Source of the DNA: Flavobacteriales bacterium
Lineage (GTDB): Bacteria > Bacteroidota > Bacteroidia > UBA10329
DNA: 64,000 bases
Direction of reading: 5' to 3'
Assembly: GCA_021739625.1 (NCBI GenBank)
Contig: JAIPBJ010000008.1
Location: 734-64,733, forward strand
The first letter of the stretch is position 1; the number at the start of each line of letters is the position of its first letter. Of this stretch, positions 29,747 to 35,419 are shown one piece after another. The position numbers and the translations under genes were made by a program. The notes under the pieces are model-generated. The model was not told the origin of the DNA. It worked only from the letters and a program-made list of their open reading frames with translations, and did not search any database.

Positions 29747-29765
29747 AAAAGGAGCGGATAAGGCA

Positions 29766-29853
29766 ATCAGGCTATCAGGTAATCAGGTAATCAGGTTTTC
29801 AGCGCATCAGCGAATGGCCCGTCTCCTGAAACCCTGATTACCTGAATACCTGA
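29766..29853. repeat. Inverted repeat whose arms are tandem octamers (ATCAGG at an 8-nt period, four copies) around a 23-nt loop
   Basis: The left arm is 29775-29802 (tcaggtaatcaggtaatcaggttttcag). The right arm is 29826-29853, and its reverse complement differs at 2 of 28 positions. Confidence 0.8.
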
Positions 29854-30709: not shown

Positions 30710-31488
30710 GCGAAGAGACCACAACAGCAGCGACCTCAACGCCCGACACCAAGGCGAAGAACGGCCCCGTGATGCTGATCAAGGACCTGTCGAAGGCATT
30801 CGGTGAGCTGAAGGTGCTGAGCGGATTCAGTGCCGAACTGATGCAGGGCGAGAATCTGGTGGTGCTTGGCAAATCGGGATCGGGCAAGTCGGTGCTCATC
30901 AAGTGCATCGTGGGGCTGCTGAGCTATGACTCGGGCAGCATCACCGTGATGGGCGATGAGGTCTCTGCGCTCAACCGCAAGGAGCTGAACGTCATGCGGC
31001 AGAAGGTGGGATTCCTCTTCCAGAGCGGGGCGCTCTACGACTCCATGACCGTGCGCGAGAACCTGATGTTCCCACTCACCCGCATCAGGAAGGATCTGTG
31101 TGCCGATGAAATGGAGGCCAAGATCAAGGAGGTGCTGGAGAATGTGGGCCTGGCCGATGCCATCGACAAGATGCCCTCCGAGCTGTCGGGCGGAATGCGG
31201 AAACGCATCAGTCTGGCGCGCACCATCGTGGTGGATCCCGACATCATGCTCTATGATGAGCCCACCACGGGCCTCGACCCCGTGACATCGGACGAGATCA
31301 GCTCGCTCATCCTCGATGTGCAGAAGAAATACAGGACCTCGTCCATCATCATCACCCACGATATCAAATGTGCCCGCAAAGTGGCCGACCGCATCCTGAT
31401 GATCAATGATGGCAAGGTGCATCTGATGGGAACACCCAAGGAGTTCGAGGAATCGGACGATGAACTTGTGGCCTCTTTCTTCAATTAG
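30706..31488 (+). CDS. mlaF: MlaF-like ABC transporter ATP-binding protein
   Basis: The start forms an ATGA overlap with the mlaE stop. Walker A is GKSGSGKS, the ABC signature is LSGGMRKR, and Walker B is IMLYDEPT. Confidence 0.9.
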   Translation: MSEETTTAATSTPDTKAKNGPVMLIKDLSKAFGELKVLSGFSAELMQGENLVVLGKSGSGKSVLIKCIVGLLSYDSGSITVMGDEVSALNRKELNVMRQKVGFLFQSGALYDSMTVRENLMFPLTRIRKDLCADEMEAKIKEVLENVGLADAIDKMPSELSGGMRKRISLARTIVVDPDIMLYDEPTTGLDPVTSDEISSLILDVQKKYRTSSIIITHDIKCARKVADRILMINDGKVHLMGTPKEFEESDDELVASFFN

Positions 31489-31620
31489 CAATTATCAATG
31501 AGCAATGAACAATTGATTGAGCGAACCCAGAATAACTGACCAACACGACTTAACCATATCACTAATTGATAATTATTAATTCCTAATTGCTAATTGTTAA
31601 TTGTAAATTCTTAATTGTAA
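31482..31620. repeat. AT-rich low-complexity inverted repeat (TAATTG-type motifs) between mlaF and mlaD
   Basis: A perfect 13-bp inverted repeat is formed by caattagcaatta (31482-31494) and taattgctaattg (31584-31596). There are five TAATTG copies in 31563-31617. Confidence 0.7.
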
Positions 31621-33285: not shown

Positions 33286-33420
33286 TCACCCCACCTTCCC
33301 CTCTATCACCTTCCAATACCTGTCGCGTTCCTCTTTCACGCGCAGCAGTTCGGCCGTCAGGTCGTTGATGCGCTGAACGAACCCTGCAGCACCACTATAT
33401 TTGCCCGACTGCAAACACAC
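33286..33420 (-). pseudogene. C-terminal remnant paralogous to the XRE-like gene at 33605-33949
   Basis: The minus-strand translation ...QRINDLTAELLRVKEERDRYWKVIEGKVG* compares with the gene end ...QRLNDLTAELQRVTEERDRYWKVVERRG*. A 27-nt identical core is at 33307-33333 and 33623-33649. Confidence 0.65.
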
Positions 33421-33425
33421 CGATC

Positions 33426-33587
33426 ATGTCAGAGAAGAAAACAGCCGACAGCAAGCGCGTTGCCGCTGAATTGCTCGTTCTCAAGAAGAAACGCAAGGGC
33501 ATGGACCTGAGCAAGTATGCAGGCAAGGTTAAGTTCGACATCGACCCCGTGGAGTACCAGAGGCAGATCCGTGATGAGTGGCGATAA
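33426..33587 (+). CDS. 53-aa antitoxin-like small protein (not in the ORF track)
   Basis: The sequence is MSEKKTADSKRVAAELLVLKKKRKGMDLSKYAGKVKFDIDPVEYQRQIRDEWR*. A downstream ORF starts 14 nt before its stop but is cut off after about 10 native codons. Confidence 0.4.
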   Translation: MSEKKTADSKRVAAELLVLKKKRKGMDLSKYAGKVKFDIDPVEYQRQIRDEWR

Positions 33588-33604
33588 CATCATAGTGTCG
33601 ATAC

Positions 33605-33949
33605 TCACCCCCTCCTCTCTACCACCTTCCAATACCTGTCGCGTTCCTCGGTGACACGTTGGAGTTCTGCCGTCAGGTCGTTGAGGCGCTGCAGCAGGTC
33701 GCGCTCCACGGCCGTTGGGCGCACGAGGGGTTGCAGCAGATGCAGGTAGGCCTCCAGCAGATTGACCCCGAGGGCGTTGCTCAGTTCCAATAGCAGACCG
33801 ATGGGCAGGTTCTTGCGCTTGAGTGCCGTGCCGAGGTAGTTGTGGCTCTGGCCCATCTTGAGGCTTTGCGCCCGGAGCGAGCTGCCCCGCTGTTGCAGCA
33901 GTGTGCCTACCAGCCTGTTGATGTCGGGAAGGGTGGTCCTCTTGGTCAT
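33605..33949 (-). CDS. XRE/Cro-like helix-turn-helix protein with a C-terminal coiled coil
   Basis: The HTH-like segment is LRAQSLKMGQSHNYLGTALKRKN. The C-terminus has a heptad-like region ending LLQRLNDLTAELQRVTEERDRYW. Confidence 0.6.
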   Translation of the reverse strand: MTKRTTLPDINRLVGTLLQQRGSSLRAQSLKMGQSHNYLGTALKRKNLPIGLLLELSNALGVNLLEAYLHLLQPLVRPTAVERDLLQRLNDLTAELQRVTEERDRYWKVVERRG

Positions 33950-34011
33950 GACCTTATTTCGTTTATGATGAACCGTATCTGGGTATATTGTAAGTTGCTC
34001 TCGGAGCTGCC

Positions 34012-34067
34012 ATGCAGAACAGCGCTGTTTTCCACATCAATTGAATCAGGTGCCATCTGTTCTGCAT
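34012..34067. promoter_or_regulatory. Perfect 11-bp inverted repeat (ATGCAGAACAG ... CTGTTCTGCAT) upstream of the XRE-like gene; candidate operator
   Basis: The arms are at 34012-34022 and 34057-34067. The site lies 63-118 nt upstream of the ATG at 33949. Confidence 0.45.
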
Positions 34068-34145
34068 CACAGTCCTTTTCATCTGATGGTATCATATATC
34101 CATCGGAATGACCCAGACCTTGATTGCGGAACAAAAATAAGCATA

Positions 34146-34397
34146 AATATAAATGCAAATCATGTAGGCATAATAGAAAATGGTGTGGATATAAATGAAA
34201 ACAATGCAGGGATAAATGAGAATCGTTCGGAAAGAAATGTGAGGCATGCAGTGATAAATGAAAACCATTCGGTAAGAAGTACAATACATTCAGTAAGAAG
34301 TGCGAGGCGTGCAGTAAGAAGTGCGAGGCATGTAGGTTGAAGTGCGAGACATGTAGGCAGAAATGAAAACATGTCATCCGAGATGGAAATGGACGTG
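34146..34397. repeat. Twelve tandem degenerate 21-bp repeats (iteron-like array), AT-rich
   Basis: Units start at 34146, 34167, 34188 and so on up to 34377. The consensus is roughly G-k-n-A-k-A-A-r-T-G-n-r-A-n-n-C-a-T-g-y-A. Units 34293 and 34314 differ at only 2 positions. Confidence 0.85.
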
Positions 34398-34414
34398 TCC
34401 ATCCGCGCGAGGGC

Positions 34415-34449
34415 ACAAAAAAAGGCCGCCCCTTTGCGGAGCGGCCTTT
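34415..34449 (-). terminator. Intrinsic terminator of the 34469-35419 gene
   Basis: The stem is AAAGGCCGC/GCGGCCTTT. On the minus strand it is followed by TTTTTTTGTG. Confidence 0.8.
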
Positions 34450-34468: not shown

Positions 34469-35419
34469 TTACTGGATGGAGATGGTATAATCTCCCGGCA
34501 TCGGGTTGCTGTTGTTCACCACAATGCTGTCTCCGGCAGGGCCCATGTCGCTCAGCTTGCCTTGGAAATTGGACGCTGGTGGCACGCTGATGGGGCTGCC
34601 CGAGGGCACGGCCCCGCTCATCAGTTGGAAACTGAGACCCACCGTGCCAGAGGAGGTCAGTTTCACAGTGGCATCGACCGAGAAGGCGATGGGGCCTGCA
34701 GTGGCCGTCATCATGGCCGGCACCGTGCCGCTGAATTCCTGCGCTGTGCCGCCACCGCCACCGCCACCGCCACCGGTGTTGTCGTCAATGGCGCGGGCCA
34801 GGTAGTACTGTTCCACCAGATCGGGGAAATCATCGAGATAGAGGTCGAGATAGGCGTCCATCTTGGTGCCCAGCATGCTGTATGACTTGGAAAGCAGCTC
34901 GGCCACATTGCGCCCGGCCACCACCTTCTGGTCTTTCTGCCCGCCCGGCTGCGGCAGTGTGCTGTAGTAGGTGGCGATGTTGGTGTCGAGCACCGTGAGG
35001 TGGGCGGGAGCGATGCGGTAGCCTGCAAGGGCGGGCACCAGCGGGGTCACGAAATCGCTGATCTGCTGACAGGTCACATGCAGTTCGGTGTCGCGCTTCT
35101 TATCGAGTTCAGATTTGGTGTAGTCGGCCTGCTTCAGCAGAATGGGATCCTCAGTGTCAAGCGCCATGGTCTTTGCCGCCCTTGTCAGGCGCAATGCCGC
35201 GCTTGTGAGGGCCACCCGCGCGTTGCCCTTGGCGATGGCATGGCCCGTGGTGTCGGCCGTGGCGATGCCATCATTCACAACGATGCCCTGTATATAGCTG
35301 TCGAGCACCAGCTTCTGGATTCCGATCTGCGCCACATCGGTCAGCGCGGCCGCATTCTGGTTCAGAAAATCCTGCACCTCTATCAGTGCGCTGAACCTGT
35401 TTTCTTCTTTTGCATCCAT
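34469..35419 (-). CDS. Hypothetical two-domain protein with a Gly9 linker
   Basis: The 316-aa protein has a helical N-terminal ~215 aa, then GGGGGGGGG encoded by a (GGTGGC)4-type repeat, then a beta-rich ~95-aa C-terminal domain. It has no signal peptide and I do not recognise a family. Confidence 0.65.
   Translation of the reverse strand: MDAKEENRFSALIEVQDFLNQNAAALTDVAQIGIQKLVLDSYIQGIVVNDGIATADTTGHAIAKGNARVALTSAALRLTRAAKTMALDTEDPILLKQADYTKSELDKKRDTELHVTCQQISDFVTPLVPALAGYRIAPAHLTVLDTNIATYYSTLPQPGGQKDQKVVAGRNVAELLSKSYSMLGTKMDAYLDLYLDDFPDLVEQYYLARAIDDNTGGGGGGGGGTAQEFSGTVPAMMTATAGPIAFSVDATVKLTSSGTVGLSFQLMSGAVPSGSPISVPPASNFQGKLSDMGPAGDSIVVNNSNPMPGDYTISIQ

Follow-up and report, generated by a model that had tools for sequence, protein, structure and literature searches.

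Repeated binding sites for DNA-binding proteins are known from several well-described bacterial systems. In type II partition, the parC site bound by the adaptor ParR consists of 10 repeats of 11 bp around the parMR promoter in the case of R1 and of tandem 20-bp repeats in the case of pSK41. Iteron origins, which are used together with Rep proteins, include those of R6K (seven units of 22 bp) and pPS10 (four units of 22 bp), and the incA and incC repeats of P1. SinR of Bacillus subtilis joins a helix-turn-helix (HTH) domain of the XRE type to a C-terminal helical oligomerisation domain and can use direct-repeat arrangements of a short motif, the repressor of phi105 has 14-bp direct-repeat operators, and gp71 of mycobacteriophage L5 has 'stoperators', which are asymmetric sites in a single orientation. 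Here we describe a locus within a 64,000-nucleotide stretch of a Flavobacteriales bacterium (assembly GCA_021739625.1, contig JAIPBJ010000008.1, positions 734 to 64,733), which we refer to in its whole length as the window, and in which an array of 21-bp units lies directly upstream of a gene for a 114-residue orphan regulator. A preliminary description of this DNA had read the array as a replication origin or partition site. We propose that array and regulator gene most likely form a self-contained regulatory module that is inherited as part of the chromosome, with the regulator as the presumed reader of the repeats.

The array occupies 34139 to 34397 on the minus strand, flanked by the terminator of a 316-residue protein gene and by the gene for the 114-residue protein, and consists of 12 head-to-tail units in all, as described by register layout, Tandem Repeats Finder and lag identity. 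Read on the strand of the gene, unit 1 covers 34390-34370 and unit 12 covers 34159-34139; the span of 34146-34397 given in the preliminary description is the same array shifted by 7 nt. When the sequence is laid out in 21-bp register, 11 units are clear (34146-34376) and one is degenerate (34377-34397), so that the earlier count of twelve holds for an array of about 12 units of which 11 are recognisable. The exact phasing of 21 bp that had been claimed is borne out by this layout and by the lag-21 identity, which over 252 bp is 0.61 against 0.30 +/- 0.03 in shuffled sequences (0 of 2000 shuffles were as high), the next-highest lags being 42 and 63. Tandem Repeats Finder likewise returned a period of 21, although it called only the best-preserved core (34232-34362, 5.8 copies, score 90), and the units at 34293 and 34314 do differ by exactly 2 bases, as stated before. 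The unit consensus on the gene strand is nTYKCWnTTMYrnnTRnnygy, with distal units in the window reading CTCGCACTTCTTACTGCAyGC and proximal units TTTTCATTTATnnCnnCAnnn. With a G+C (GC) content of 39%, the array block stands apart from the window (56%), and the 21-bp unit is absent elsewhere in the 64 kb. Direct repeats spaced at two helical turns beside the gene of a small DNA-binding protein, as the preliminary description saw them, are supported, and the units are asymmetric. The contig from one public metagenome run (X2) stops at 34308, inside the two near-identical units at 34293-34334.

The strongest property of this array is its constant association with the regulator gene. We read 12 distinct lineages (the window, L001/L008-L010, L002, L006/L007, L011, L012/L013, L014, L015/L016, L017, L018/L019, L020 and L022), in which the relatives of the 114-residue protein are 43-85% identical to that of the window and the GC content within the arrays ranges from 25 to 49%. 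All 12 carry 8-12 units with a period of 21 directly upstream of the gene and in the same orientation, with lag-21 identities of 0.49-0.71 compared with 0.27-0.31 for shuffles (p < 0.0005 in each of the ten loci tested), and the period-21 array is still found in L020 and L022, where the proteins are 48% and 43% identical to that of the window. The flanking genes vary among these loci, the constant unit being the array together with the regulator gene, and the array is kept beside the regulator gene where the 316-residue gene is missing (L001/L008, L018 and L020). The array is thus shown to be strictly coupled to the 114-residue gene across 12 lineages. One very distant relative, P0064 (L023), has only 74 bp of upstream sequence on its contig and so is uninformative on the array.

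The units are also alike in sequence across lineages. Among 79 units pooled from eight GC-rich lineages, single bases dominate at five positions (T2 92%, C5 78%, T8 89%, T9 81% and T15 78%), two-base preferences are seen at columns 3, 4, 6, 10, 11 and 16, and the remaining columns vary within and between arrays, giving a position-specific motif common to the lineages, nTYKCWnTTMY..TR. A weight matrix built from seven lineages, with the window left out, finds ten in-register matches spaced by 21 nt at 34139-34369 on the minus strand, among them the top score of the window, and elsewhere in the window it gives about 26 matches at that threshold, within the 26-38 obtained from shuffles. The AT-rich array of L015, whose protein is 50% identical, retains CGC(T)ACTTA.GTATACA. 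Related arrays differ in length by 21 and 42 bp. The number of copies, a comparison that the preliminary description had proposed, does not change among close strains (L001/L008-L010, and L015/L016, where there are no indels), and partial contigs from three other metagenomes (runs X2-X4) align without gaps.

At its proximal end the array meets what appears to be the promoter of the regulator gene. In Bacteroidetes the -7 box recognised by sigma-A has the form TAnnTTTG and covers positions -12 to -5, counted from the start site (PMC9723704). The sole match to TAnnTTTG within 600 nt upstream of the 114-residue gene is TATTTTTG at 34132..34139 on the minus strand, the first base of which is the last base of the array. 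The last array unit opens with TTTG (34156..34159, minus strand), a putative -33-like element separated from the downstream -7 box by 16 nt, and the same spacing of 16 nt is found in L002, L011 and L012. The only TAnnTTTG box upstream of the gene lies no more than 1 nt from the array end in five lineages (the window, L002, L011, L012 and L014) and inside the last array unit in a sixth (L020). Because the -7 box starts on the last base of the array and TTTG heads its last unit, the array is, as judged from these motifs, probably promoter-upstream DNA in register with the core promoter, and transcription is predicted to start near 34127 on the minus strand. Such an ending at the -7 box fits a putative promoter-linked operator array.

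Beyond the predicted start site, a predicted 5' leader of about 178 nt (33950..34127, minus strand) is weakly 21-periodic and ends in a conserved ACGAAAT...ATG. Its lag-21 identity in the window is 0.36 against 0.25 (p = 0.001) and the periodicity is stronger in L006, L011, L014 and L017, with p <= 0.001 in five lineages. The leader is made of degenerate 21-nt units that continue as far as the ATG and have a CGAAAy motif in phase; the periodic part extends over 33950-34127 (minus strand) in the window, over -190..-1 in L011 and L014 and over -63..-1 in L006 and L017. Long leaders (about 190 nt) differ from short ones (about 85 nt) by exactly 105 bp, or five times 21, and this holds even for L002 and L011, whose regulator genes are 94% identical. 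The folding z-score of the leader RNA is -1.9.

The regulator gene itself (33605..33949, minus strand) encodes a protein with a predicted five-helix HTH domain of the XRE/Cro-CI type (residues ~10-69) followed by a C-terminal coiled-coil helix (80-113). In the AlphaFold2 model, which has a mean predicted local distance difference test (pLDDT) score of 79, five short helices (10-20, 25-31, 38-42, 50-60 and 64-69) precede the long helix, and all of the top Foldseek matches are XRE/Cro-CI folds, namely EnrR, HipB, SinR (1b0n), ClgR, lambda cI and the restriction-modification (R-M) controller protein C.EcoT38IS, with the best superpositions at a root-mean-square deviation of about 2 A over some 50 residues. 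A profile of 17 homologs has the HTH of SinR as its best match among solved structures, at E = 0.33, which is short of any significance threshold. Of 30 distant relatives, three match HTH_3 (best E-value 5e-7) and two match Phage_CI_repr. An exhaustive profile search collected 89 family representatives at 50% clustering, mostly of about 110-125 residues, and every one that was looked up is from an uncultured member of the Bacteroidia or from a metagenome. A hydrophobic repeat with 3-4 spacing is conserved family-wide in the C-terminal helix, and three relatives carry insertions of exactly 7 residues there, which we take as the signature of a probable coiled coil. Together the models suggest a DNA binder that has a divergent XRE fold and a helix for oligomerisation, and that belongs to the XRE class at the level of the fold only. 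The family is absent from Pfam, NCBIfam, PHROGs and PADLOC, and our search of the literature found no description of such a family or module. Its context is under-sampled, most members lying on contigs of 0.5-3 kb.

With a probability that we put at roughly 0.55, the array acts as a head-to-tail operator array through which the adjacent 114-residue regulator controls its own promoter. That it would be a functional protein-binding array beside the gene of its binder is well supported by the comparative evidence; that the binder is this protein rather than another, that it binds cooperatively and with which sign it regulates, we infer. In the mechanism we propose, the protein would bind the asymmetric 21-bp units head to tail, and, 21 bp being two helical turns, the bound copies would come to lie on one face of the DNA, where contacts through the coiled coils could join adjacent copies cooperatively in a filament covering about 170-250 bp, up to the -33 element. 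The last unit would supply that element and abut the -7 box of the sigma-A promoter of the gene, with weaker in-phase units running on into the leader. Occupancy of the array would then set transcription of the regulator, most simply by steep autorepression, and in those loci where the gene is followed by no terminator (L008, L014, L015 and L017) it might also set transcription of the genes downstream.

A number of observations weigh against this reading or narrow it. No dyad centre rises above column-shuffled controls in any of the 12 arrays, and since the units have no dyad symmetry, any binding must be head to tail, which is unusual for an XRE-type fold; the missing symmetry is atypical for XRE-type dimers, and the binding geometry is only proposed. 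Judged against what defines the XRE/Cro-CI class, the five-helix HTH domain is present in the model and palindromic operators are present in none of the arrays, so the array and its regulator would break the palindromic-operator rule of a class to which the protein belongs by modelled structure only. The window protein has no Pfam match at E <= 0.1 and falls below every threshold of Pfam, NCBIfam, PHROG and PADLOC, and the Foldseek E-values are weak (0.08-1). The label 'XRE-like' used in the preliminary description therefore stands at fold level, by AlphaFold2 and Foldseek, but finds no sequence-family match for the window protein. An array placed upstream of the -33 element would be compatible with either activation or repression. 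In the 64 kb, the matrix scan found no second cluster of units, and none upstream of the 316-residue gene, so that it offers no cross-check from a regulon. Only in the window does GC content change significantly from the distal to the proximal units, and such a gradient was dropped as a general rule of the arrays. Finally, upstream DNA changes faster than the gene between L015 and L016 (12 substitutions in 450 positions against 0 in 342), and the non-core half of the unit differs between lineages but is uniform inside each array, a pattern suggesting that units may turn over by gain and loss; faster upstream substitution and non-core turnover together mean that constraint is only partial.

The regulator gene has a further peculiarity at its other end. 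An 82-bp pseudo-copy (33294..33375, minus strand) is 85% identical to the last ~28 codons of the gene (33610-33691), and the two 3'-end copies bracket an insert of 234 bp (33376-33609) that holds an open reading frame (ORF) of 53 codons (33426-33587, plus strand), for which a relationship to the DUF6364 antitoxins was considered and dropped for want of any similarity. Homology of the duplicate starts sharply at about codon 87, and the displaced copy is closer to the allele of L011 (89%). The same arrangement is present in runs X1-X3, and two contigs (L003 and L004) of another metagenome-assembled genome (MAG) end in the duplicated piece, one of them running into MNT and PIN toxin-antitoxin genes. 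Contigs assembled from short reads often end in or close to the array, or at the duplicated 3' end. The duplication resembles a scar left by the insertion or exchange of cargo at the 3' end of the gene.

What follows the regulator differs from locus to locus: a Fic gene that overlaps its stop codon in L008 (4345-5583), a TIR_2 gene in L014 (4484-5281), NotI with a methyltransferase in L017 (744-2501), PIN_3/DUF6364 in L012 (4400-5086), a pair of AAA_15/AAA_21 ATPases in L011 (4359-6312), and in L020 (5893-10330) a Mu-like prophage with an S24 repressor, a 664-residue protein and AAA_22. Upstream of the 316-residue gene, L015 and L016 (60-2432) hold two different R-M systems, and no canonical terminator is seen after the regulator gene in L014, L015 or L017. 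On this gene content the module appears to border a variable, defence-rich hot spot of cargo exchange. Because of this border one may ask whether array and regulator serve as a generic 'gatekeeper' in uncultured Bacteroidia, placed at a chromosomal landing pad where toxic or defence genes are acquired horizontally. The protein would then polymerise on about 10 phased units and make a switch-like promoter that reads into the inserted cargo, such cargo (Fic, TIR, R-M or toxin-antitoxin genes) would be inserted at one defined place within the last ~28 codons of the regulator, and its exchange would have left the duplicated 3' end behind. In role this would resemble an integron platform or a controller protein, here with an XRE-type protein and an iteron-like array. 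We regard this extension as unlikely.

On the other side of the array, a predicted intrinsic terminator of the 316-residue gene (34417..34446, minus strand; stem GGCCGCTCCG / CGGGGCGGCC followed by T7) separates that gene from the array, and the same hairpin with its T-run is kept in L002, L006, L011, L012, L014, L015 and L017. The distal edge of the array, from the terminator to the first clear unit, holds a short conserved motif, CATTTCCG (34398-34416 in the window, -277..-257 in L002, -379..-359 in L011 and -441..-434 in L012), which lies inside GGGGCATTTCCGnGCAGTAT in L002 and L011. The 316-residue gene (34469..35419, minus strand) is a frequent upstream partner of the module: it is found in the window, L002, L012, L014, L015/L016 and L022, is left as a 3' remnant in L011, and is absent in L001/L008, L018 and L020, where other genes take its place. 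Its family is a small orphan one of 14 clusters with no Pfam match. In the AlphaFold2 model (pLDDT 87) a helical bundle at the N-terminus is joined by a poly-Gly linker to a C-terminal jelly-roll, which has a weak resemblance to PirA, Ena-pilus or cupin folds (E ~4e-4). A (CCGCCA)n stretch at 34749-34775 codes for the linker and cross-maps heavily in metagenomes (word depth > 700).

Around the array, Pfam identifies ClpB, a hybrid histidine kinase, AsmA, a cupin, GH130, a GT4 glycosyltransferase, an AI-2E transporter, an M28 peptidase and a short-chain dehydrogenase (adh_short), and Mla genes in the same stretch were identified from translations only. The ClpB, M28 and adh_short neighbours are common to the window and L011, and the module is therefore taken to be inherited vertically in the chromosome. 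No name from the defence, phage or NCBI family collections was obtained for the 114-, 316-, 53- or 89-residue products, and among public read runs the sequence was found in DNA metagenomes only. Two other repeat structures were seen in the mla region. At 29753-29853, upstream of an mlaE-like gene, 4.5 copies of the octamer AGGTAATC face an inverted copy about 40 bp away, and at 31482-31618, between mlaF-like and mlaD-like genes, two heptamer arrays (CAATTAG and TAATTGT) form a 33-nt inverted repeat that is 79% complementary.

Other explanations of the array have to be set beside an operator read by its neighbouring gene product, beginning with the one put forward in the preliminary description, that the units are the iterons of a replication origin or a centromere-like site of a plasmid, phage or integrated element, with the small protein as initiator or adaptor. 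The form does match, in that an AT-rich block beside the gene of a small DNA-binding protein holds 8-12 direct and asymmetric repeats of some 21 bp (the 12 units of 21 bp in the window fall within the ~17-22 bp usual for tandem iterons), the position at a motif-predicted adaptor promoter recalls R1 and pSK41, where the adaptor gene, too, has its promoter flanked or overlapped by the parC repeats, and the locus borders on variable, horizontally acquired genes. Its company is nevertheless that of a housekeeping region with synteny to L011. No gene of the Rep, ParA, ParM or TubZ type occurs among the ten largest annotated ORFs within ~15 kb, which bears out what the preliminary description itself had said of Rep and Par ATPases, nor in the homologous loci, so that both the initiator of an iteron origin, whether of the Rep_3/RepA or the lambda O type, and the partner nucleoside triphosphatase (NTPase) of a partition system are missing. 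Mobile carriage, whose absence that description had counted against its own reading, was not found either: the protein has no relative in PLSDB plasmids or INPHARED phages by tblastn or in IMG/VR by protein scan, blastn of the array DNA returned one 39-bp chance match in plasmids (in a Salmonella plasmid) and none in phages, and the unit patterns gave zero or single chance matches in IMG/VR. DnaA-box-like sequences number two in the window at 8 of 9 positions, which is the chance level, and are absent from 10 of 11 other loci, so that neither conserved DnaA boxes nor an unwinding element accompany the array, and a 114-residue protein with an XRE fold is unlike the winged-helix Rep initiators and unlike the partition adaptors, which have the ribbon-helix-helix (RHH) fold of ParR, ParG and omega or the winged-HTH fold of TubR. 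We conclude that the array is iteron-like in form, not in function, and consider an origin or partition site highly improbable. A functionless minisatellite, born by slippage and kept by descent, might be suspected from the unit identity of only 47-64% within arrays, from a non-core half that differs by lineage and from upstream DNA that changes faster than the gene. It would not be expected to persist down to 43% protein identity and over array GC contents of 25-49% with 8-12 units each time, to keep the same conserved columns in independent arrays so that a matrix works across lineages, or to hold its copy number among close strains and its position relative to the -7 box; neutrality, on which the preliminary description had allowed its own reading to fail, is not what 12 lineages with a shared motif indicate, and we think a minisatellite very unlikely.

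Nor do we find much to recommend a set of recombinase or transposase sites at the edge of the variable region, a very improbable reading in our view, even though the regulator gene borders the hot spot with its Fic, TIR, R-M, toxin-antitoxin and ATPase genes and Mu-like prophage, its last ~82 bp are duplicated around a small insert at a place where two contigs of one MAG break, and the ends of Tn7- and Mu-type elements carry several ~22-bp sites. The variable DNA is found past the 3' end of the gene and the array on the opposite side; the window has no inverted second cluster of units; no transposase or integrase gene adjoins the array, the unrelated Mu-like element of L020 sitting downstream of the gene; and 8-12 contiguous sites far exceed those of known element ends. 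Expression of the repeats, as a heptad-repeat peptide (21 bp being seven codons) or as a repetitive non-coding RNA, is scarcely credible. Long ORFs do cross the array on both strands, the four listed in the preliminary description (33946-34416, 34092-34289, 34160-34402 and 34041-34340) do exist, the longest of them (33946-34416) stops within an ATGA that overlaps the start codon of the regulator, and gene callers placed ORFs in the arrays of L012 and L014. These frames are spurious, as had been said: no frame on either strand is open through the array in all homologous loci, the GC content at third codon positions (GC3) of ORF 33946-34416 is 0.43 against 0.64-0.81 in most confirmed nearby genes, and none of the array-crossing ORFs has a Pfam match, so that a protein-coding heptad repeat was rejected. 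A structured or known RNA was rejected on Rfam, whose only match at E <= 1 is a chance-level Thr-leader over the terminator, and on array folding z-scores near zero (+0.15 and +0.27 on the two strands), and the array has a strong terminator before it and its only -7 box after it. There is rather more to be said for a different reader of the same DNA, be it a nucleoid or architectural protein, RNA polymerase at a stack of near-promoter or UP-like elements that would have arisen by duplication of the 21-bp interval from -33 to -7, or the 316-residue neighbour. The units open with bases like TTTG or TTCG, their period is close to the -33 to -7 distance, the actual -33 and -7 elements are in register with them, TATAAT or TACAAT occurs in the units of L015 and TATCTTA in those of L022, and the 316-residue gene is a frequent neighbour. 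The array, however, tracks the 114-residue gene where the 316-residue gene is missing, no DNA-binding fold is seen in the model of the latter, predicted curvature is unremarkable, and a general host factor leaves unexplained why the arrays of the window occur only beside the 114-residue gene; a different reader thus seems to us rather unlikely. Intrinsic curvature as a property of the array was set aside on the result of a wedge model, in which the array falls between the 11th and 86th percentiles of the window, a weak negative since the wedge parameters are approximate.

Should the 114-residue protein bind the array, it would be an XRE-type regulator that reads 8-12 contiguous, asymmetric sites phased at two helical turns, an architecture otherwise tied to plasmid iterons and centromeres and, if this is true, used here as a chromosomal promoter switch. 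It would also mean a new protein family together with its DNA code, and the 12 natural variants of protein and site would help to decode how the DNA is recognised. The module marks the edge of a region of defence and toxin gene swapping in uncultured Bacteroidia of freshwater and sludge, and could serve as a landmark for new cargo. A caution that follows for annotation is that an iteron-like array alone does not indicate a replicon.

Compared with the systems introduced at the outset, iteron origins share with this locus direct asymmetric units of about 19-22 bp, present in some 4-12 copies in AT-rich DNA beside the gene of the presumed binder; they differ from it in having a Rep-family protein, conserved DnaA boxes and a replicon, and the present array ends at a predicted promoter. 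SinR equals the 114-residue protein in size and in its two-part architecture and is its match by both sequence (E = 0.33) and Foldseek. The similarity is nonetheless sub-threshold, so that membership is by resemblance only, and SinR sites are 7-bp motifs in twos to fours, in contrast to 8-12 contiguous units of 21 bp. The phi105 repressor and L5 gp71 are, like the regulator proposed here, HTH repressors with non-palindromic sites in one orientation to transcription, some of which lie downstream of the start and can block elongation, to which the periodic leader is comparable; their sites are dispersed or few, in contrast to a contiguous phased array that has neither prophage context nor phage relatives. 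The controller (C) proteins of R-M systems are likewise encoded by small genes with an XRE-type HTH, and some of the present loci resemble theirs in lying co-directionally upstream of toxic genes without a terminator (NotI with a methyltransferase in L017, Fic in L008, TIR in L014). Their C-boxes comprise two palindromic operators that together measure about 35 bp, as opposed to 8-12 asymmetric units here, and the regulator described here is conserved even where no such cargo lies downstream.

The partition system parC-ParR differs from the present locus in that no ParM, ParA or TubZ NTPase gene accompanies the array, which is chromosomal and vertically inherited, and in that an XRE-type HTH with a coiled coil takes the place of a ribbon-helix-helix protein and has no plasmid or phage relatives; with the NTPase, the plasmid context and the RHH fold all absent, the module is therefore not a member of the ParR-parC systems. 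The two are alike in their many phased direct repeats at the promoter of the gene for a small binder, which here is presumed, in repeats on both sides of that promoter if the weaker leader units are counted, and in a cooperative nucleoprotein structure that would double as an autorepressor. The closest working analogy would thus be ParR-parC, in which the repeats surround the adaptor promoter and cooperative coating of the DNA doubles as autorepression.

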